A stretch of DNA of 64,000 nt from an uncultured Planctomycetota bacterium (GCA_963845755.1 CAWJTV010000005.1:32001-96000), one strand, 5' to 3'; positions 51,711 to 64,000 are shown, counted from the stretch's first letter. Numbers and translations: made by a program. Notes: generated from the sequence alone by a model not told the origin.

Positions 51711-54700
51711 ATGAACGAATCCGGCGATCAGCGCAGCCTCATCGATCTACTCGCGGAGGAGTTCCTCGAGCGGAAGCGTCGCGGAGAAGAGCCCTCGGTC
51801 GCCGAGTACGCCGTACGTTTTCCGGAGCTTGGGGACGATATTCGGAAGGTTTTTCGCGCGATCGCCATGATCGAATCGCTCAAGCCGGGGTCGAAGGAGT
51901 CGATCGACGCGATCTCTCCCGTCATACCGGGGGGCCGCGGAGCCATCCCCGAGCGTCTGGGCGATTTCCGCATCCTGCGATTCGTGGCCGAAGGAGGAAT
52001 GGGTTATGTCTTCGAGGCCGAGCAGGAGTCGATGAACCGTCATGTTGCGCCTCAAGGTCCTGAAACCCCAGGCCCATAGTCCGAAGATGCTGGCCCGGTT
52101 TCTCCGCGAGTCGAAGGCGCCGGGCCGTCTGCATCATACGAACATCATTCCGGTTTTCGGCATCGGCGAGTGCGACGGTCTCCACTTCTACGCGATGCAG
52201 TTCATTCACGGCAAATCCCTCGAACGAGTCATCTCCGACCTTCGTCGCCTCCAGAATCGCGACGATGAGACGGTGGCACGAAGCGCCACGGGCTCGGGAG
52301 CCGAGAGATCGTCAACCCTGGCTTCAATCTCTCAAGGACTGAGGACCGGGGTCTTCGGTGGCACCGTGCTGATCGAGGCGTGGCGGCAGAACGGGACTGG
52401 CGCGGACGACTCCGGGTCGGCGGGCCTATCGCCGACTCAGCTTTCCGACGGCGCGATCGCTCGACCAACTGAGGCGGAGAATCACGCCGACCCATCAACA
52501 GCCACGGACCAGTCGGGCTTGAGTTCCTCCGCCCGTGACACGTTTTACAAGAGCGCCGCGCGAATCGGCGAGCAGGCAGCCCGCGCGCTGGGAAGCGCCC
52601 ACCGCAACGGCATCCTCCACCGAGATATCAAGCCATCCAATCTTCTGATCGACCTCCAAGGCAATGTCTGGGTCGCTGACTTCGGACTGGCGTATGAAGA
52701 AGACGCCGAAGACATCTCCCACGGCGACGTTGTCGGAACCCTCCGGTTCATCCCACCCGAGCGGTTCAGGCAAATGTCGTTGCCGCAGGGCGACGTGTAT
52801 TCGCTCGGTCTGACCCTCTACGAGCTCGTCACGCTTGAGCCGGCGTTCCGGAGCAGCCATGCGCGTCACCTGCTGCGGTCGCTGGAGTACGAGCAGCCCA
52901 AACCTCCGCGGGCGATCGATGGGAGAATCCCGAAAGACTTCGAGACGATCATCCTGAAGGCGATCGATAAGGACCCCGCTCGTCGTTACGAGACGGCCGA
53001 CGCGATGGCCGACGATCTGCTCGCGTTCCGTGAGGACCGGGAGATTCGGGGCCGGCGCGTCCGATGGGATGAGAGGCTTGCGCGATGGTGCCGGCGCAAT
53101 CCCGTCATGGCCGTCCTCGCCGCCTCGGTCTTGTTGCTGTTGTCGACGATCGCCGCGGGCATGTCGCTCTCGGTGGTCTGGCTCAGGAAGGAGCGCCAGG
53201 CCACACTCCAGCAGCTCAGCCTGACCCGCGAGGCTGAGGACCTCGGCCACCGCCGCCTGTTGGACTCGCTTCTGGCGCAGGCGCAAGCACGTCGGCGGGG
53301 AGTCGAGGTCGGCCGCAGGTCCCAGAGTCTGGATGCGGTCGCTCGAGCCGGCCGACTCATGCGGGATCTTGGCCTGACCACCGAGAAACAGCTCCTCTTG
53401 CGTAATGAGGCGATCGCCTGCATCGCGCTGGTCGATCTCTTGCCCATTCGAACCCTTCCCGAGCTGCCGGGAGCGGATCGCGGCCCTGGCGGGGAGCTGT
53501 CCGATATCTATCTCCCGTTTGATGCCGATTTCAGTCGCTGCGCCCGCATGATCGAAGATCGATGTCTCGCGATCCTCGACACGACACAGGGGACAGTCTT
53601 GAGGCGGCTGGCAGCACCCCCAGGGATTTTCGCCGGTGGATTCAGTCAAGATGGCCGATATGTCCTGGCTACGGCCTCGGAACCGACCGCGGGACCGACC
53701 CTTGCCGTGTGGGATCTGACCCGGGACGGGTCGGCGCCGACGATCCTCATGGAGCGTTCCGTGATCTCCTGGGCATTTCACCCAGACGGCCATCGGCTGG
53801 CGATCGGCCGGCCACAAGACGGAGTGATTACTCTGCTCGAACTCTCCTCCGGACGCCAGTTGGGCCTGATCGGATCGGGCCCGGCCCCGACGCAAAATGA
53901 GCAGGCGATGGCCTTCTCGCCGGACGGGACGCGTCTCGCCGTGGGGACCGATGAGGGGGAATCCGTTCGGATCTACGACCTCGCGAGCGGCGCCCTCGCG
54001 GACGAGTGGCACGTCGGAACCTCGGTCTCCTCCCTGGCCTGGAGCGACGACGGCCGACTGCTGGCCGCGGGCTGCGACGACCTGCAAATCTATCTCAGAG
54101 ACATGGCCCCCCTGCACGGTGCCCCTCCGGTTGTCGTCTCCACCTTGTCGGGACACAAGAACAACGTGTTCAAGGTGGCGTTCGTCGGCGGGCTCCTCGT
54201 ATCGACGTCACATGACGAGACCGTGCGCATTTGGGATCCGATCCGTGGGGCCGAATTGACCTCTTGTCCGGGTCAGTACTTCCATCGGGGGCCCGACAAG
54301 ACGGTCCTGATCGAAGCACCCTCCTTGAGGTTGAAGTACGAGGTGATGTCGATTGTCGGAGGCGAGTTCCGATGGATTCCGCAGGGGTTGTTCGGCAACC
54401 GGATGGCCCGGCCTTCGGGCATAACGTCCGCAGTGAGCTTCCATCCGAGTGGCGGTTGGCTAGCAACAGCCAACTCGGATGGGGCCAGGCTCTACGACAC
54501 CGAGAAGGGCATCGAAGTCGCCTGCCTGACTGGTAGTGATCCGAAGTTCAGTAGTGTGGCGTTTCACCCCGAGGGCCGTGAATTATTGACCCACGGCGGT
54601 GCCGGGGTTCAGCTCTGGCCGATCCGCATGGAATCCGGTCCGGCGGCAGGCTTACGGGTCGGAGTACCAAGTCTCGTGGCGTCAACAGGTTTTCAGGGTC

Positions 54701-55404
54701 CTTGCAAAGCACCCTACCGCGCCGATGGTCAGGCGCTGGCCTTTGCCGTACCCAGCGAGGGCTGGGTCGGCGTGATTCCCGATGGCAAACCGGATCGTTT
54801 GGTGCGCCTCGGTCCCCATCCGAGGGTCCGGCACGTCAGCCTCAGTACCGATGGGCGTTATGCGGCCACCAGCACCTGGAAGGGTTCCGGTGTCAAGATA
54901 TGGGACCCGCTCGGAGGCTCCCTGCTCCATGAGATCACCAGCCATTCCGCGCGCTGCGAATTCAGCCCGGACGGCCGTTGGCTGGGCACCTCGTTTCATG
55001 GCAAGTACCAGCTATGGCAGGTGGGATCCTGGCGGTCGGGTCCCGTCATCCACAGCGAGGATAGCGACAGCCACGGACCACTGGCGTTTTCACGCGACGG
55101 AACCCTCGTGGCGGTGAGCGTCGATTTTAGCCGCCTGATCAAGCTCGTCCGCCTCGATACGGCCTCCGAGATCGCCACGCTCGAGCCGCCCGACCAGGCC
55201 ACGATTCACGATCTCGCGTTCAGCCCCGATGGCGCCCTGCTCGCCGCAGCGACCAGCGACCACGCCACTCATCTCTGGGACCTTCGTGCCGTTCGTCTCG
55301 AACTGGCACGAATCGGCCTCGACTGGGACCTGCCCCCACACTCCTCCCCGCGCTCGGCCATGACCCTCGGCCCGCGCCGGGTGACGTTCAATCTCAACGA
55401 TTGA
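51711..55404 (+). CDS. Ser/Thr protein kinase with TM segment and WD40 repeats (frame break near 52048)
   Basis: EGGMGYV, HRDIKPSNLL, DFGLA, GTLRFIPPE; many FSPDG/WD repeats; N-terminal LAEEFLER...PEL segment. Confidence 0.9.
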
Positions 55405-55993: not shown

Positions 55994-56043
55994 CGGTCGC
56001 GATCTCCCGTTTCCTGGCGGAGGGCGTCTTTCGTCAGGGGAAC

Positions 56044-56478
56044 CTGGCGCGGCCTTCGGTCGCTACCAAGAAGGGATTCGGGATTCCGGATTCGAGATTC
56101 GAGATTCCGGATTCGAGATTCGAGATTCGGGATTCGGGATTCGAGAATCGGGATTCGAGAATTCGGGATTCCGGACTCGAGATTCGAGATTCGAGATTCG
56201 AGATTTGGGACTCGAGATTCGGGATTCCGGACTCGAGATTCGGGATTCGAGATTTGGGATTCGAGATTCGGGATTCGAGATTCGGGATTCCGGACTCGAG
56301 ATTCGGGATTCGGGATTCGAGATTCGGGATTCGGGATTCGAGATTCGGGATTCCGGAATTCGGAATTCGGAATTCGGAATCCGGAATTCGGGTTCCGGAT
56401 GAAAAAGGAATAGGGAATCCGGAATCAAGGATTCCCAGTTGTGCGCACGGCGCAGGGATCGTACGGAGATCGGCTCTA
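56044..56478 (+). repeat. Dispersed element copy C with an expanded heptamer array (about 46 units, 56073-56400)
   Basis: GCGGCCTTCGGTCGCTACC head; GAGATTC/GGGATTC/CGGATTC/GGAATTC units; tail GCGCACGGCGCAGGGATCGTACGGAGATCGGCTCTA. Confidence 0.9.
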
Positions 56479-56616
56479 ATGCGGCGATCGGGCCGAAGAG
56501 AATCCGGATTCGCCATTCGCGATTCCAGATGAGCGATGACTCGGGAATCTGGAATCGCGAATCTTGAATCTCCAGGATACGCGCACCGCGCAGGCATCCT
56601 TCGGAGGAATACTCTA
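56476..56616 (+). repeat. Dispersed element copy D, in tandem with copy C
   Basis: CTAATGCGGCGATCGGGCCG head; ATTC/GAATC arms; tail GCGCACCGCGCAGGCATCCTTCGGAGGAATACTCTA. Confidence 0.75.
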
Positions 56617-56638
56617 TCCAAAGTGGCCTGAGAACGCC

Positions 56639-57338
56639 TCAGGACAGCTCGAACAACAAGACTTCGGAAGGTCCTTCGGCCCGGAACCTGGACACCGGGC
56701 TCGTCACTGATCGCCGCGCCATCCCCGCTCGCGAGAGTTTTCCCACTCAGTGCGACCGCTCCGCGCAAGACTTGCAGCCAGCCATGGCGTTGTCGATCCA
56801 GACGGTGCGTGATCTCGGTGCCCGCGTCGATCGAAGCCAGGAACAGTCGCGCATCCTGCCGGATGATCAACGAACCGTCCTCCCCATCCGGCGAAGCGAC
56901 CACGCGAAGTCGATTCCGTCGTTCCGCTTCGGGGAACGTCTTCTGTTCGTAAGACGGATTCAGTCCCTCCCGCTCCGGCAGCAGCCAGATCTGGTAGAGG
57001 TGGATCGGCTCGGTCTCGGACGCGTTGAACTCGCTGTGAGTGATGCCCGTGCCGGCCGTCATCCGCTGGAGCTCACCCGGCCCCAGGACTCCGCCGGAGC
57101 CCAAACTGTCCCGATGCGCCAGGGCACCCTCGAGCACGTACGTCACGATCTCCATGTCGCGATGCCCATGCGTCCCAAATCCCTGCCCCGGTGCGATCCG
57201 ATCTTCATTGATCACACGGAGGGCGCGGAAACCCATCTGCTCCGCATCGAAATAACGGCTGAACGAAAACGTGTGGTACGTGTCGAGCCAGCCGTGGTCG
57301 AAATGGCCCCGCTCGACTCCCCTGCGAACCCGGATCAC
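56639..57338 (-). CDS. Pirin family protein (YhhW-like); frame break near 56685
   Basis: HGWLDTYHTFSF, LRVINED, HGHRDMEIVTY, MTAGTGITHSE, QIW; shifted C-terminus AEGPSEVLLFELS. Confidence 0.92.
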
Positions 57339-57642: not shown

Positions 57643-59275
57643 ATGGCAGCCCTGCGGATGATCGAAGGCGATCGGCCTGGCACGGTGTACCGGCTGGAGA
57701 AAGACGAGACAGTGATCGGGAAAGCCGCGGAGTGCGACATCCCGCTGTGCGACGTGCACGTTTCGAAGTCGCACGCGAAGATCGTCCGCCAAGCCGACGG
57801 CTTCTACCTCGTAGACCTCGACAGCACGAACCATACGAAGCTCGAGGGGGAGCGTCTGCCGGCGATGCAGCCCCGCCGCCTGCTCGACGGCGACACAATC
57901 AAAATATGCAGATTCACATTTGTCTATAGTGGGGGCGATCTGGCCCAGGAAGGGGCGCCCGACGATCCTCGACTCGATCGAGGTGCTATCGTCCGGCGGC
58001 CGGCCGCGTGCCGGGGCCAAGGCGGAAGAAAAACTCCGGGTCGTCATGGATATCGTCAGGGAGCTGGTCGGGGTCCTGGAGCTTTCGGCCGTGCTCGAGA
58101 AGGTGCTGGAGGCATTATTCCAGATTTTCCCCCAGGCCGAGCGCGGGTTCGTGCTGTTCCAGGAGTCGCGGACGAATCAGTTGCAGGTCCGCGCCAGCAA
58201 GTTCCGGCATCGCGGGACGGAGCGATCGGCGCCCAGCCGCACGGTTTACGATCACGTCACGAAGGAGGGCCTGGCGATCCTCTGCGAGGACGTCCCCGCC
58301 GACAGCCGGTTCGGCTTGATCCATAGCCTCGAGATGAACCAGGTTCGGACGATGATGTGCGTACCGCTCTGGGATCACCAGCACCGGGCGATCGGTGCCC
58401 TCCACGTGGATACTCGCGATGGACGGAGCCGGTTTACCCAGGACGACCTCGATTTCGTCGTCGCGCTGGCCGGCACGATCAGCATGGGCGTCGAGAACGC
58501 GCAACTGCATGAATGGGACGTCATCATGGAGCGCCGCAAGCAAGAGGCGCGAGATGCTCGTGCGGTGCAGTTGTCCCTGATCCCGGTACGATCCCCGGAC
58601 CTACCCGGGTATGCATTCTGGCACGACTACGAACCGGCGGAATTCGTCGGCGGCGATTACTTCGACTATCATCCGCTGCCAGGGGCGGATGCTTCGGCGC
58701 CGTCGAGACGATGGGCCGCCGCCGTGGGTGATGTCGCCGGCAAGGGGATGCCGGCCGCGCTGATGATGGCCCGTCTTTCCGCCGAGGTGCGACTCCTCGT
58801 CCAGGTGGAGCCCGACCCGGTCCGGTTGGTCCGTCGCCTGAATCGCAACCTGTGTGAGGTCGGTGGCGAGAAGTTTGTCACGTTCCTGCTCGTGATCGTC
58901 AACGCGGACCGTCACAGCCTGACGGTGATCAATGCGGGTCATCCGTCGCCGATGATCCGTCGGGCGGACGGACGCCTCGATCTCGTCACGGCGACCAGGG
59001 CCTCGATGCCCCTCGGGGTGAAGGACGACGAGACCTACCATGCCTCAACGACCCCGCTGGCGCCCGGTGATGTTGTCGTGCTCTTCACCGATGGGGTCGA
59101 GACCATGAGTCGAGAGGGCGAACTTCTGGGAATGGAACGACTGAAGCGGATCATCGCCGAGGCACCTCCGGTTGTTGCGTCGGTCGGCGAGGCCATCCGC
59201 GACGCGGTTCGACTCCATTCTGCGGGGCGAAGCCAGTTCGACGATATCACCATCCTCTGCTTCGGGCCGGTGTGA
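57643..59275 (+). CDS. FHA-GAF-PP2C (SpoIIE-type) phosphatase, copy 1 (frame break near 57950)
   Basis: FHA IGK...VSKSHAKI...DLDSTNHT; GAF MCVPLW...FTQDDL; GGDYFD, GDVAGKG, FTDGV, DDITIL. Confidence 0.88.
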
Positions 59276-59423: not shown

Positions 59424-59590
59424 CCCTCAGCTCCAGCCGATCCCCCTCCCGGACCATTACCCGTTTAACATGAGAAACTCAGCCGGGTAAAATGCAAGGA
59501 AATCGCGCCCGAGCGTCGATCGCGATTGGAGAAGTGAGGAAGGCTTCCTGTCGCTGAGTGCTCGCATGGATCAGCGAGGAGTACGACTCC

Positions 59591-61241
59591 ATGCCGACGT
59601 TGCAGATGATCAAGGGAGAGTGGCCACAGAAGCTGTATCGACTCGCTCAGGAGGAGACGGTCATCGGCAAAGGGCCTCATTGCGACATCATCCTTCCGGA
59701 TGAACATGTTTCGACGCTGCACGCCAAGGTCGTTCGTCGCCAGGACGGCCTCTACATCGAAGACCTCAACAGCAAGAATGAAACGAAGGTCGGTCGAGAC
59801 CTCCTGGAAAAGGTCACGGAACCGCGGCGTCTGACACATGGCGATGAGATCAAGATCTGTAAGTATCGGTTCATTTATCTCGAGGGCGAGCCGATCCCGG
59901 GTGAAACGCTGACGGTGCTGGAAACGATCGGCGTGTTGACGGCCGACGTGCGCAGCCCCGGTGAGTTCGAGTTCCGAGGAGAAGCTTCGGGTTGTCGAGG
60001 AGATGTGCGGCGAGTTGATGGGGGTGCTCGACCTCGACGCGGTGCTGGGGAAGGTCCTTGAGGCGTTATTGCGCATCTTCCCGCAGGCCGAGAGGGTCCT
60101 GCTCGTGTCGCAGGATGGGGATACGCGAGAGCTCCGAGTCCGGGCGAGCCGTATCCGGCACGCCGATCGGGACCGAGCGGCACCCAGTCGTACAGTCTTC
60201 GATCTGGTCACTCGCGAGGGCCACGCAATCCTCTGTGCGGACATCAGCGCGGACGTTCGACTCTCCGAGAGTGACAGTCTCGGCAAAGCCCGGGTCCGGA
60301 CGATCATGTGCGTTCCAATCTGGGACACCGAACGTCGCCCGGTCGGCGTACTGGAACTCGACGCGGAACATCGGCAGGGCCGGTTCACCCAGGAGGATCT
60401 CGACTTCCTCGTCGCCCTGGCGACCACGATCAGCATGGCGCTCGAGAACGCTCGGCTGCACGACCTGGCCCTGAGGCTTAGAGAGTGGGATCGGGAGGGG
60501 CAGGATGCCAGGGTGGTGCAAGACTGCCTGATCCCGGCGCGACCTCCGGAATTGCGAGGCTATGAATTCTGGCATTACTACCAGCCGGCTCGCTTCGTCG
60601 GCGGAGATTATTTCGACTATCGTCCGCTGCGCCGGCAGCGCGCTCTCGCGGCGGCCGCGACGGCGAGACGATGGGCCATCGCGGTCGGTGACGTCTCGGG
60701 CAAGGGGATGCCTGCGGCCTTGCTCATGGCCGGGCTCTCGAGCGAGGTTCGACTCCTGCTCGACACCGAGGCTCGGGCGATTGGTGTGATGGGACGACTC
60801 AATCGAAGCCTCTGCGAGACAAACGTGAGCGGGAGGTTCGTCACCTTCCTGCTGGCCATGCTGGATGGAAAACGTCACGAGCTGACGGTGCTCAACGCCG
60901 GCCATCCCTGGGCGATGATCCGTCGCGCCGATAAGACCGTCGAGCTGATCGGTGAGGGGCTACAGTCGATGCCCCTGGGTATCCAGGATGATGACGATTA
61001 CCAGACGGTCCCGACCGCGATCAAGCCGGGCGATGTGGTGGTCCTCTGCACGGATGGCGTCACGGAGGCGATGAACTCTGACCTCGAAACGTTCGGCATC
61101 TCGGGCCTGAAGCGGTCGCTCTCGGAGGCACCCGCCGGGGCGGCCGCGGTCGGGGCGGCGATCCTCTCCGACGTCCGCCGCCATGCCGCCGGCCAGGATC
61201 CGAACGACGATATTACCCTCCTCTGCTTCGGACGGCCATGA
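59591..61241 (+). CDS. FHA-GAF-PP2C (SpoIIE-type) phosphatase, copy 2 (frame break near 59960)
   Basis: Same architecture and clear similarity to 57643-59275 (ETVIGK, EEKLRVV, IFPQAER, GGDYFDY, GDVSGKGMPAAL, DDITLLCFG). Confidence 0.88.
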
Positions 61242-63748
61242 TCCTGGACAGGCACGAACTTGAATCGACACCCCCCTGGCACTCGTCCGGTGAAACAACC
61301 ACGGATTCCCCGTCGCTCGACCCCGGCCGGGGGATCGGCTGGTATCACCTGGAGAGCGTCTTGGGCGAGGGTACGTTCGGACGGGTCTACCTGGCCCAGC
61401 ATGAAGTCCTGGGCCGGCGAGTGGCGATCAAGGTGTTGAATCGACGGCATGGGTCCGGGCGACAGGAAATCCGTGCCTTTCTCAACGAGGCCCTCATTCT
61501 GGCCGAATTCAACCATCCGGGCATCGTGCCGGTCTTCGACGCCGGCTGGACGGAAGATGGTTTGTACTACATCGTGTCGCGTTATGTGGAAGGGGGCGAC
61601 CTGCGTGGCGTTCTTGCGCGAGGCCGGCAGCCCGCCCGGCGCACCGCCGAGATCACGATCGCGGTCGCGGAGGCGCTGGCCTACGCCCATGCTCACGGCC
61701 TGGTCCACCGCGATATCAAGCCGGCTAATATCCTCATGGATCTCGACGGCAAGCCGCTGGTGGCCGACTTCGGGGTGGCCCTCCGAGACAAGGATTTCGG
61801 CCGAGGGACCAGGCTTGCCGGCACACCCGCGTATATGAGTCCCGAGCAAGCTCGGGGCCAGGGGCACCGGGTGGATGTCCGATCGGACATCTTCAGCCTG
61901 GGCGTCGTCTTGTATGAGATGCTGACGGGCCGACGTCCTTTCCGGGGCGCGGACCCGCGCGAGCTCTCGGAGCAGATCATTCGCGGGCCGGCCGTTCCTC
62001 CCCGTGAAATCGACGGGACCATCTCCGAGGCCGTGGAGCGGGTTTGTCTCAAGGCCATCGAGAAGCGGCCCGGAGATCGTTACACGACGGCGCTCGATCT
62101 GGCGAGGGATCTCCGGGAATACCTCGATACCGATGAGGTCCACCTCGGGACGAGCGTCGCGGTCGAACCCGACCCGGATGATCCCGACACCGTCTCACCC
62201 TCGCGGCCGAGCCCCACGTCGTCGGCCGCGAGCCGAGAGATCGTGTTGATCTCGACGAGGACGGGATACTCGACTACGGACTTGCACGCGCTCAAACTTC
62301 GACCGCGCGGATTGCGGCCTTTCGGGCGAAAAGACGCCGGTTTTTTCCAGGACCTGCTCCCCGGGCCTCGCGACCAGAACGGGTCGCCCGAGATCCTGGG
62401 CTTCTGGCGATCTCGGATCGAGGGCTCAGACGGCCGAGAACCCCTCCGGCTCGGTCTCGTGTTCGGCCCCTCTGGCTCCGGCAAGTCCTCGATGGTCACG
62501 GCTGGCCTCCTGCCGCTCCTGTCCGAGCGCATTTCCGTGGTTTCCATCGAGGCGACAGCCGCCGATACCGAGGGCATCCTCCTGACGAAGCTGCGGTCTC
62601 GATATCCCCGCCTGCTCGCCGGATTCAACCTCGCTGCCTCGTTCATCGCGGCCCGGAAGGGCCTTATCCTCCCGCTCGGAAGACGTCTGCTCATCGTCAT
62701 CGATCAGTTCGAGCGCTGGCTGCGTACCGCGCGACCCCGAGACGAGCAGGGATTGCTGGCCGCATTGCGACAGTGTGACGGCGAGCACGTTCAGGCCCTC
62801 CTCGTGGTCCGGGACGACTCCTGGCTCGCCGCCAGCCGGCTCCTGAGAGATCTGGGGGATCGCCTGATCGAAGGGGAGAATATTACACCTATTGATCCGT
62901 TTGATCCGAGACATGCCCGGGCGGTCCTGTCGGCCTACGGCAGGGCCTTCGGGGGCTTGCCCGAGGATGCGACACTCCTCACGGAAGAGCATGAGAAGTT
63001 CCTCGACGATGCGATCTCGGCGTTGTCGAGGGACGGTCCGCTTATCCCCATTCGACTGGTCCTCTTCGCAGGGCTGCTCGGACATCGGGTCTGGAACACG
63101 TCGAGATGGGAGGCCATCTCACGATTGGGAAACGACGATGCGGCCTATCTCGAAGCAGCCTTCGACACGGAAACTGCGCCCGCCGATCGCCGTGCACATC
63201 GACAGGCCGCCCGCTCGGTGCTAAAGGCACTCTTGCCGGCAAACGAGGAGAGGGCCCCGTTGCCAATCCTCTCGTATCGCGACATCGTCGAGGCATCCGG
63301 TCGTGCAACTCAGCCCTTCGAATGCCAGGCCCTCTTTCGCATCCTCGAGGAGGAGCTACGGCTCATCACGCGAGTCGATGTCGCGAGTCGAGCCGAATCC
63401 GAAGGGCCGCCCGCGGAGAGGGAGAGTTTCACCTACCGCCTGGGTCACGACTATCTCGTCGGACCCCTCTCCCTCTGGCTAGCCCGTGATCGAACCTCGC
63501 CATCATGCCATGTTCGAGGAGAGCATCATCCCCGACAAGAACTTACGGATCCCGGCAGGACGCGGAACCAGCCGATCGATCTGAATACGGCCAGCGAGTC
63601 GGAATTGAGGAGCCTGCCGGGCGTCGGACCGGTAATCGCTCACCGAATCATCGAGGCTAGACCTTGGCGGTCGGCCGCCGATTTGTTGAGGATCAAGGGT
63701 ATCGACGAGAAGCGTCTCGAAAGGCTTCAACCCCTGATCCGGCTGTAA
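61238..63748 (+). CDS. Ser/Thr kinase - nSTAND1-like NTPase - ComEA-type helix-hairpin-helix fusion
   Basis: LGEGTFGRV, VAIK, HRDIKPAN, DFG, GTPAYMSPE; PRGLRPF, GPSGSGKSS, LLIVIDQFE, LGHDYLV; C-terminal IDLNTASESELRSLPGVGPVIAHRIIEARP...DLLRIKGI. Confidence 0.88.
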   Translation: MILDRHELESTPPWHSSGETTTDSPSLDPGRGIGWYHLESVLGEGTFGRVYLAQHEVLGRRVAIKVLNRRHGSGRQEIRAFLNEALILAEFNHPGIVPVFDAGWTEDGLYYIVSRYVEGGDLRGVLARGRQPARRTAEITIAVAEALAYAHAHGLVHRDIKPANILMDLDGKPLVADFGVALRDKDFGRGTRLAGTPAYMSPEQARGQGHRVDVRSDIFSLGVVLYEMLTGRRPFRGADPRELSEQIIRGPAVPPREIDGTISEAVERVCLKAIEKRPGDRYTTALDLARDLREYLDTDEVHLGTSVAVEPDPDDPDTVSPSRPSPTSSAASREIVLISTRTGYSTTDLHALKLRPRGLRPFGRKDAGFFQDLLPGPRDQNGSPEILGFWRSRIEGSDGREPLRLGLVFGPSGSGKSSMVTAGLLPLLSERISVVSIEATAADTEGILLTKLRSRYPRLLAGFNLAASFIAARKGLILPLGRRLLIVIDQFERWLRTARPRDEQGLLAALRQCDGEHVQALLVVRDDSWLAASRLLRDLGDRLIEGENITPIDPFDPRHARAVLSAYGRAFGGLPEDATLLTEEHEKFLDDAISALSRDGPLIPIRLVLFAGLLGHRVWNTSRWEAISRLGNDDAAYLEAAFDTETAPADRRAHRQAARSVLKALLPANEERAPLPILSYRDIVEASGRATQPFECQALFRILEEELRLITRVDVASRAESEGPPAERESFTYRLGHDYLVGPLSLWLARDRTSPSCHVRGEHHPRQELTDPGRTRNQPIDLNTASESELRSLPGVGPVIAHRIIEARPWRSAADLLRIKGIDEKRLERLQPLIRL

Positions 63749-64000
63749 TGGCGGCGCGATCGACCATCACGCCCGCTCATTCGAGCCTGTTCCCATCCGG
63801 GATCCCGTCAGGGAATCCTCGAGCCTCGACGTTACGTGGGGCCCTGGGGCCGAACTGGTCCCGAGAGTGATCCATGGGGGGATTCTGGAGACATCAGGTT
63901 GGCGCGAAGGTATTCTCGATGGGGTGGCGAAGGATTGCAAATTCGAGGGACACGAAGGTGGTCGACGTCATCGAGGATGGTGTGGCGACCTGGGTGGACA

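Follow-up and report, generated by a model that had tools for sequence, protein, structure and literature searches.

The gene described here raises the question of what a protein kinase joined to a STAND NTPase does with a domain of DNA-binding type at its carboxyl terminus, where other STAND proteins carry their sensor. The gene is found in a stretch of 64,000 nucleotides (the window) from an uncultured Planctomycetota bacterium (GCA_963845755.1 CAWJTV010000005.1:32001-96000; genome G000, 14.27 Mb in 49 contigs, 87.9% complete). Its product, P0001, has a Hanks-type kinase at residues 36-284, an nSTAND1 module at ~346-756, a disordered linker of ~20 amino acids and a ComEA-type tandem helix-hairpin-helix domain, (HhH)2, at 778-836. 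It is tentatively proposed that P0001 is the kinase of a cytoplasmic, DNA-associated, STAND-gated kinase/phosphatase signalling pair and represents a branch of the planctomycetal Hanks-kinase/nSTAND1 family. The gene and its parts are the following, in window positions:

61238..63748, + strand: kinase-nSTAND1-HhH gene, ATG start, 836 amino acids and stop
61343..62089, + strand: Ser/Thr protein kinase domain (residues 36-284), from Pfam Pkinase and the full set of catalytic motifs
62138..62272, + strand: Ser/Thr/Pro-rich disordered linker (~residues 301-345), from composition and low model confidence at 320-325 and 327-341
62273..63505, + strand: STAND NTPase module (~residues 346-756) with NOD, helical domain and winged-helix domain, from Pfam nSTAND1 and the structure model
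62465-62491, + strand: Walker A motif GPSGSGKSS (residues 410-418)
62687-62713, + strand: Walker B motif LLIVIDQFE (residues 484-492)
63440-63460, + strand: LGHDYLV motif (residues 735-741) at the end of the winged-helix domain
63506..63568, + strand: flexible linker (~residues 757-777), from low model confidence at 756-775
63569..63745, + strand: ComEA-type tandem HhH domain (residues 778-836), from HHH_3 and fold matches

No stop codon interrupts the 836 codons, and the Walker A, Walker B and LGHDYLV motifs listed in a preliminary description of this DNA, made from the sequence alone, are all present where it placed them in an uninterrupted open reading frame (ORF). Pkinase, nSTAND1 and HHH_3, the profiles it had proposed to check, all exceed their gathering cut-offs in a Pfam scan of P0001. 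The protein aligns end to end with its ortholog P0002 (59% identity over 838 columns), which has the same three domains. The full-length model, based on a 68-row alignment, has a mean predicted local distance difference test score (pLDDT) of 86.3 and a predicted template modelling score (pTM) of 0.80; pLDDT is below 50 at residues 320-325, 327-341 and 756-775 and reaches 93-95 in the HhH domain. A fold search with the whole model gave kinases only, and residues 346-836, comprising the STAND and HhH part, were therefore modelled (mean pLDDT 88.9, pTM 0.80) and searched on their own. These confident predictions yield the domain folds anticipated in the preliminary description. No transmembrane (TM) helix is predicted, as it had also claimed, because the highest Kyte-Doolittle mean over 19 residues is only 1.44. 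A T-P-[PL]-W-H-S motif that precedes the kinase domain (P0001 residues 8-16) is common to the amino termini of P0001, P0002 and P0027. The sole terminator-like match in a scan downstream lay inside a coding region (L001 3927-3944) and was not used.

The kinase domain matches PF00069 with an E value of 6.7e-49 (167.1 bits, cut-off 31.7) and features the motifs GEGTFGRV (43-50), VAIK (62-65), HRDIKPANIL (157-166), DFG (177-179) and GTPAYMSPE (195-203, with SPE at 201-203). By profile and catalytic motifs P0001 is a Hanks-type Ser/Thr kinase of predicted activity. Its model superposes on Mycobacterium tuberculosis PknB (1mru_A) with Z 32.3 and a root mean square deviation (rmsd) of 2.4 over 254 aligned residues that are 40% identical. 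The Ser/Thr-rich linker that follows the kinase is a putative site of autophosphorylation and of FHA docking.

The nSTAND1 profile (PF20703) is recognised at residues 404-565 of P0001 (55.0 bits, cut-off 27.1), over profile positions 34-197 of 379. The STAND module of the fused proteins is nevertheless complete, because the match in P0002 spans positions 34-364 of 379 and stops ~20 residues short of the HhH domain. Conservation across the 68-row alignment is 90% or more for G-P-x-G-x-G-K and D-Q-F-E. Folds matching the module are those of NRC2 (8rfh_A, Z 17.0, rmsd 5.0, 303 residues aligned), 8bob_D (15.1), NLRP9 (14.9), NLRP3 (14.6), the archaeal TPR-STAND 6mfv (14.5) and Apaf-1 (13.7), with Avs3 and Avs4 at Z 11.2 and 11.1; Foldseek retrieved ZAR1, ORC/Cdc6, CED-4 and Apaf-1 at E values of 1e-8 to 1e-6. 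P0001 thus has in common with Avs proteins and eukaryotic NLRs both the fold of NOD, helical and winged-helix domains and the order effector, NTPase, carboxyl-terminal module. In contrast to them it contains no repeat-type sensor (WD40, TPR, LRR or HEAT), the winged-helix domain being followed only by the ~20-amino acid linker and the 60-amino acid HhH domain, its effector is a kinase and its putative ligand is nucleic acid, not a phage protein. The HhH domain therefore occupies the usual position of a STAND sensor, a role that is putative for P0001.

The tail matches HHH_3 (PF12836) at residues 778-835 with 56.5 bits (cut-off 27). Hairpin 1 reads LPGVGP (793-798, with GVG) and hairpin 2 reads KGIDEK (820-825), a GID in which Asp takes the place of the usual second Gly. 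Its sequence relatives of solved structure are the Thermus ComEA-related protein 2DUY (E 7.3e-16), ComEA 8DSS (2.5e-10) and PsbU (2e-6). The tail model fits 2duy_A with Z 11.9 and rmsd 1.5 A (64 of 65 residues aligned, 48% identity) and 8dss_B with Z 10.9 and rmsd 1.1 A. The likeness to these two proteins includes the fold, ~47-48% identity over the domain, LPGxG and the Arg that precedes Pro. It does not extend to the whole protein: P0001 scores 36.6 bits against a cut-off of 152.35 with the NCBIfam comEA model TIGR01259, and 21.5 against 53.1 with the HhH repeat model TIGR00426. Unlike ComEA, which is periplasmic, P0001 is predicted to be cytoplasmic, with the kinase at its amino terminus and no hydrophobic segment, export signal, membrane anchor or ComEA amino-terminal domain. 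Judged by these profiles P0001 is not a ComEA, and the label ComEA-type given to its tail in the preliminary description holds for the domain and not for the protein. A search of a set of 5.8 billion proteins with the HhH alone (residues 770-836) gave 138 candidates, none at E <=0.001, and was uninformative. ESM Atlas look-alikes of residues 560-836 were clusters of nSTAND1 fragments only, at 0.86-0.87 against a level of 0.9, and provided no lead.

At least five kinase-nSTAND1 paralogs of G000 are split by a frame change or carry a stop (C11:830827-832003, C20:417241-418471, C35:43253-44541, C25:54775-55741 and C25:236164-237407). They are either pseudogenes of an expanded family or products of assembly indel errors.

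Because several paralogs are split in this way, a fusion created by an indel had to be excluded for P0001. A 151-nucleotide contig of short reads (run X1) covers 63473-63623, from the last part of the STAND module through the linker into the HhH domain, with 0 differences and 0 gaps; this interval includes the region of ~63480-63570 singled out earlier for read mapping. A second contig lies over the stop codon, at 63654-63888, with 3 substitutions and no gaps. The short reads are Logan contigs of four runs from one study and leave 62900-63065, 63371-63472 and 63624-63653 uncovered; they support the base calls rather than an independent occurrence of the gene, because the runs may come from the window's own sample. 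This junction and tail recur, with 4 amino acid differences over ~100 residues (96% identical), in P0130, a 148-amino acid fragment of a different assembly. The contig over the junction, P0130 and the orthologs described next rule out an assembly chimera or a frameshift fusion.

Ten sequences with the fused architecture are known in total, at 35-60% identity to the window protein, and the form is known from uncultured soil planctomycetes. Besides P0001 the full-length members are P0002 (831 amino acids), P0027 (822) and the G069 protein, an intact ORF of 823 amino acids that is 50.7% identical to P0001. Pfam assigns Pkinase, nSTAND1 and HHH_3 to 4 of the 4 full-length proteins; the three besides P0001 have 45-59% identity over the NTPase module. 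A further locus, in G010, is 62%, 49% and 36% identical to P0001 in kinase, NTPase and tail, respectively.

The fused form is conserved but rare across Planctomycetota, the breadth of search that the preliminary description had advised. A query of the STAND end and the HhH (residues 700-836) detected it in 3 of 121 genomes of the same family (G000, G069 and G010). A profile, A1, was made of residues 560-836 of the sequences from these genomes; in 401 genomes across the class it detected the fused form in the same 3, while 102 of the 401 encode some member of the family (E <=1e-40). Profile A1 gave 60,453 matches at E <=0.001 among 1.84 billion cluster representatives, and 8 of the best 150 have the STAND end and the HhH in one stretch: P0016 (the G010 piece), P0018, P0022, P0024, P0027 (full length), P0038, P0056 and P0130. 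Scanning genome contigs with two peptide patterns yielded a full-length match in the G069 and G010 records only. A match in G018:C106 that seemed to reach the HhH proved to be an ordinary TM-type paralog.

A tree was built from the NTPase module alone (P0001 residues 396-757, HhH excluded) with quick IQ-TREE and branch support by the Shimodaira-Hasegawa-like approximate likelihood ratio test (SH-aLRT). Its 91 rows are the five fused sequences of sufficient length and 86 non-fused relatives, taken from search matches and intact G000 paralogs. The five fused rows are all united in one clade by a branch of SH-aLRT 100 with a stem length of 0.69, and paths within this clade measure 1.3-2.0 substitutions per site. 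By this tree the fused sequences are of single origin, and its support, long stem and deep internal paths indicate that the fusion is old and was retained. The tree does not inform on the root of the wider family, because its rows were picked by similarity to the fused proteins.

A functionless P0001, whether a truncated paralog in decay or a chimera of the assembly, is hard to reconcile with these data. This alternative draws on the split paralogs of G000, on the damaged state of the G010 copy and on the lack of the gene in the same-genus genome G001 (both discussed below). Against it are the intact ORF with all catalytic motifs, the three other intact full-length orthologs, the long stem and deep branches of the clade, the conservation of the HhH while the linker drifts and the confirmation of the junction by the short-read contig and P0130. 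The preliminary description had named a fusion confined to this genome, arisen recently from a truncation and a comEA fragment, as the outcome that would speak against its reading. The fusion is instead conserved and old, and the alternative is considered very improbable.

The non-fused relatives reveal what the tail replaced. Planctomycetal kinase-nSTAND1 (PF20703)-TM-HEAT/FGE (PF03781) proteins have the same kinase and STAND NTPase, with 41-48% NTPase identity to ~10 G000 paralogs and to hundreds elsewhere, and share with P0001 the segment that precedes the NOD and the closing HDYLV..WL motif. In 74 of the 86 non-fused relatives the 200 residues past the STAND module contain a TM-like segment (19-residue hydropathy >=1.6), and 54 of the 86 have a tail similar to FGE-sulfatase (by BLAST to the end of a G000 paralog); precomputed Pfam labels give PF03781 on 8 of 14 matches. 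The family consensus reads HDYLV..L..WL, then an Arg-rich helix, then ~23 non-conserved positions that hold the TM-like segments. The fused clade leaves the family sequence just past WL-x-x-x-R and continues with a non-conserved linker and the HhH.

The typical member thus appears to be a single-pass, receptor-like protein whose kinase and STAND module are cytoplasmic and whose tail is outside and often consists of HEAT repeats with an FGE-sulfatase/C-type-lectin-like domain. The fused proteins have neither TM helix nor ectodomain; they end in the 60-amino acid (HhH)2 tail and form a separate clade on a long branch. Because the relatives mostly have a TM helix and an FGE-like tail, the cytoplasmic HhH is seen as a replacement of anchor and ectodomain, probably exchanged once, that gave rise to a soluble protein of ~830 amino acids. 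The earlier statement that the HhH lies in the sensor position is correct in that it directly follows a complete STAND module; it has to be amended in that the exchange changed the topology and was not a like-for-like swap of sensors, as the tails of 74 of the 86 relatives lie beyond a TM segment.

The source of the tail was sought among other HhH proteins. Only one other HhH match exists in G000 (C41:173765-173947) and it is 38% identical, which rules out that G000 recently recruited the tail from a comEA gene of its own. The most similar HhH domains of related genomes, with 41-62% identity (tblastn), form the carboxyl terminus of proteins of ~390-525 codons, measured stop to stop. In 7 of 8 such loci inspected (L025-L032, in G102, G110, G113, G103, G134, G006 and G080) a hydrophobic amino-terminal segment is followed by a metallo-beta-lactamase-like body, and the combination Lactamase_B and HHH_3 was confirmed by Pfam for L025. 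These proteins are a plausible donor, and it is reasonable to suppose that the HhH was shuffled in from a gene of the Lactamase_B-HhH type. They differ from P0001 in their signal-like amino terminus, in being hydrolases rather than kinase-STAND proteins and in having GIG in hairpin 2 (7 of 7 inspected). They recall the nuclease domain of ComEC combined with the ComEA binder and may be secreted or periplasmic enzymes of DNA processing. Long tandem arrays of ComEA-type HhH were also encountered in P0017 (2806 amino acids, 21 matched stretches), P0020, P0025, P0026, G031:C231 and G080:C13/C28, together with many proteins of 350-800 amino acids that have 4-12 ComEA-type HhH stretches.

The gene upstream of the fusion codes for an FHA-GAF-PP2C phosphatase, present in the window in two tandem copies that are 55% identical to each other:

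57643..59275, + strand: FHA-GAF-PP2C copy 1, in two reading frames (FHA ORF 57643-58326; GAF-SpoIIE/PP2C ORF 57920-59275)
59558..61241, + strand: FHA-GAF-PP2C copy 2, in two reading frames (FHA part 59591-59986 by tblastn; GAF-SpoIIE/PP2C ORF 59961-61241)

The stop codon of copy 2 overlaps the kinase start by 4 nucleotides (ATGA). The G069 ortholog of copy 2 consists of one ORF of 546 amino acids with FHA, GAF and SpoIIE domains and has the same 4-nucleotide overlap with the kinase gene; in G010 an FHA-GAF-PP2C gene is also found upstream but is split. The phosphatase is thus immediately upstream of the fusion in 3 of the 3 genomic loci (G000, G069 and G010), with the overlap measured in G000 and G069, while the flanks beyond the two genes are not common to the three. 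Kinase and phosphatase genes form a conserved pair and are predicted to be co-transcribed. The frame changes from FHA to GAF are at ~57902-57936 in copy 1 and 59973-59986 in copy 2, and the G001 ortholog (G001:C21, L059) changes frame at the same boundary, where the G069 gene (L033 8745-10385) is continuous. Each of these frame changes could reflect two genes that overlap, a site of recoding or an indel error that recurs.

Mycobacteria combine Hanks kinases, a PP2C phosphatase and FHA proteins in the PknB/PstP/FhaA-B system. The P0001 kinase is closest to PknB and its partner is likewise a PP2C-family phosphatase with FHA. The planctomycetal pair differs in that the phosphatase is of SpoIIE type and has a GAF domain, and in that the kinase is soluble and would be gated by a STAND module rather than by a PASTA or extracellular sensor. 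The pairing is not particular to the fused form: the FGE-type paralog at C11:652154-654328 also has FHA-GAF-PP2C upstream. Other phosphatase copies of G000 adjoin a plain kinase (C20) or have no kinase within 10 kb (C11:1377127-1378764).

The remaining neighbours encode a pirin-like protein, a GNAT acetyltransferase, a kinase-WD40 protein, a TauE-like membrane protein and a dehydrogenase-like secreted protein. The kinase-WD40 ORF (52042-55404, +, 1120 amino acids) has WD40 beta-propellers and a Pkinase match at residues 171-324 that covers the C-lobe only (profile positions 99-260); its N-lobe may be divergent or carry an insertion. The pirin-like bicupin (56034-57338, -; Pirin and Pirin_C_2, residues 12-227) has a carboxyl-terminal extension of ~200 amino acids with weak matches of coiled-coil type.

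In the same-genus genome G001 (87% complete) the flanks of the locus are ~82% identical in DNA (80-85%), with the pirin gene and the first phosphatase copy kept on one side and the downstream genes on the other. Where G000 has 59276-64933 in window numbering (~5.7 kb, to G000:C5:96933), contig G001:C21 (L059) has ~1.1 kb that holds a MarR-like ORF of opposite orientation. What G001 lacks here is the second phosphatase copy together with the kinase-STAND-HhH and TauE-like genes, and the same queries did not find the fused form elsewhere in G001. The G+C content is 0.631 in the segment and 0.628 in both flanks, so that composition gives no signal either way of a recent horizontal arrival. No mobile-element genes were seen near the locus, where no search was aimed at the segment borders for these or for repeats. 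The cassette is accessory and patchy, which fits both repeated loss and occasional transfer.

Binding of DNA by the tail is central to the proposed function. Excerpts of PMC3879209 describe that ComEA holds DNA by contacts of its HhH to the backbone, both in vitro and in vivo, and that in Vibrio cholerae ComEA the residues K62/K63, directly past the GIG of hairpin 1, are required in vivo and in electrophoretic mobility shift assays. The motifs N-x-A, E-L, L-P-G-x-G and R-P and the first Gly in hairpin 2 do not vary among the 10 fused HhH domains, all of which have a basic residue at +2 after hairpin 2. The linker that precedes the domain is ~25-50 residues long, variable in length and has zero conserved columns in the alignment of the ten; selection on the HhH is deduced from the contrast between its invariant residues and this linker. 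The isoelectric point of the domain is 8.5-11.1 in 9 of the 10 members and 6.5 in P0024.

Several observations weigh against the function proposed here for P0001. The gene is dispensable, since it is absent from same-genus G001, and the reading frame of the G010 copy contains one stop and changes twice, as a result of either decay or indel error. The fused proteins lack the Lys pair of V. cholerae ComEA: with V. cholerae G60 and R71 aligned to P0001 G797 and R808, all 10 members have hydrophobic residues at the K62/K63 equivalents (V799/I800 in P0001). Five of the 10 have another residue instead of the second Gly of hairpin 2 (Asp in P0001, Ser in three and Thr in one), the other five having GIG; P0130 also has Asp at this position. 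The loss of this Gly suggests relaxed or altered binding. PsbU shares the fold of the tail, and Pfam PsbU matches it at E 1.3e-5. HhH motifs of the Pasteurellaceae protein ComE1 bind fibronectin as well as DNA, according to an excerpt of PMC2601033.

These features of the tail would also be explained if it did not bind DNA and acted instead as an adaptor for a protein or ligand that docks the kinase-STAND protein to a partner or bends back onto the NOD and autoinhibits it. The closest relatives of the tail are however of ComEA type and not PsbU (2DUY at E 7e-16 versus PsbU at 2e-6), nine of the ten domains are basic, and LPGxG of hairpin 1 and the conserved Arg residues are intact. The Thermus ComEA-related protein 2DUY is likewise hydrophobic at the K62/K63 equivalents, and the disordered linker fits a tethered rather than a docked domain. 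An adaptor without DNA binding is thus rather improbable, and DNA binding by the P0001 tail, as judged from its relatives, is likely but not assured.

If the tail binds DNA, the protein might serve in immunity. The HhH would detect foreign or abnormal DNA (phage, plasmid, free ends, uncoated) and cause NLR-like oligomerisation, the kinase would be the effector of abortive infection or alarm and the phosphatase would keep the system off in uninfected cells. The STAND fold is NLR-like and Avs3 and Avs4 are among its matches, occurrence is patchy (3/121 and 3/401 genomes) and two congeneric species differ in the segment that holds the gene. In excerpts of the respective papers, nSTAND1 is named in the setting of predicted counter-invader systems (PMC8195603) and a putative role in sensing antigens is discussed for related nSTAND1-FGE proteins (PMC10907252). 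The kinase matches the PADLOC models PD-T4-6 and mad6, but these match any Hanks kinase: among the 25 of 36 PADLOC matches listed, all (PD-T4-6, mad6, MkoA and others) fall on the kinase domain, and neither a STAND match nor a defence context for P0001 is found. No defence gene is present among the neighbours, the G+C content equals that of the flanks and no mobile-element genes were seen. The kinase and FHA-GAF-PP2C pairing is widespread in G000 and looks like ordinary signalling, and a non-specific binder of double-stranded DNA (dsDNA) has no evident element to discriminate self from non-self. A role as immune DNA sensor is therefore considered unlikely.

The signalling function tentatively assigned to P0001 builds on the observed architecture with its intact motifs and folds, its conservation and single origin, the gene pair and the loss of the TM segment. 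It would operate as follows. The (HhH)2 tail would tether the protein to the backbone of dsDNA with no sequence preference, and DNA would act as a platform on which the raised local concentration lets STAND modules bound to nucleoside triphosphate (NTP) oligomerise. The kinase domains would then trans-autophosphorylate, in the activation loop and in the Ser/Thr-rich linker 301-345, and phospho-threonines would recruit the FHA domain of the phosphatase, which would reset the switch. The GAF domain of the phosphatase might provide a second, small-molecule input. The output would be phosphorylation of substrates, probably DNA-associated.

DNA is preferred as platform or co-factor over its mere presence as signal because chromosomal dsDNA is always in the cytoplasm; a non-specific binder always sees the chromosome, and the presence of DNA alone therefore cannot discriminate. 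The NLR-like model of the preliminary description, in which DNA is the trigger, might apply if the protein responded to DNA in a particular state. The tail would then engage incoming, naked, broken or exposed dsDNA, NTP-dependent STAND oligomerisation would switch on the Hanks kinase and the FHA-GAF-PP2C phosphatase would set the threshold. Such a cytosolic nucleic-acid sensor is regarded as doubtful.

STAND NTPases joined to a DNA-binding domain are found in transcription factors of the MalT/LAL and AfsR/SARP types. The 8bob chain ('negative regulation of the maltose system'), presumably MalT, is the second-best fold match of the P0001 module (303 residues). By analogy, proteins of the MalT type provide a precedent for a DNA-binding domain that is the output or localiser of a STAND protein rather than its sensor. 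They differ from P0001 in having a sequence-specific helix-turn-helix, a separate repeat sensor and no kinase, whereas P0001 is a putative non-specific binder with no repeat sensor and with a kinase effector.

The component families of P0001 are known. Their combination kinase-nSTAND1-HhH was not found described in the literature on nSTAND1 and on STAND with helix-hairpin-helix and kinase in Planctomycetes, in agreement with the preliminary description, which had not recognised the architecture from a described system. The terms 'HhH' and 'helix-hairpin-helix' have 0 occurrences in the main texts of PMC8195603 and PMC7159879, whose supplements may list architectures.

STAND and NLR switches usually have the order effector, NTPase and repeat sensor and respond to protein or small-molecule ligands. 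In P0001 the third element is a minimal HhH module, the effector is a kinase and a phosphatase adjoins, which makes it a clean, testable example of a STAND switch joined to a minimal candidate DNA-binding module. Kinase-nSTAND1 proteins appear to be mostly transmembrane receptors, and this bears on how their FGE-type tails are read. A tail that does not bind DNA would be a case of a ComEA-type HhH reused as adaptor. If P0001 were triggered by DNA, its logic would make it a prokaryotic parallel to DNA-activated kinases and DNA-sensing inflammasomes, and it would be the first STAND protein with DNA as ligand. If DNA gates or scaffolds the switch, this soluble protein of ~830 amino acids would offer a compact model for STAND oligomerisation on a polymeric ligand and would link Hanks-kinase signalling to the nucleoid in Planctomycetota.

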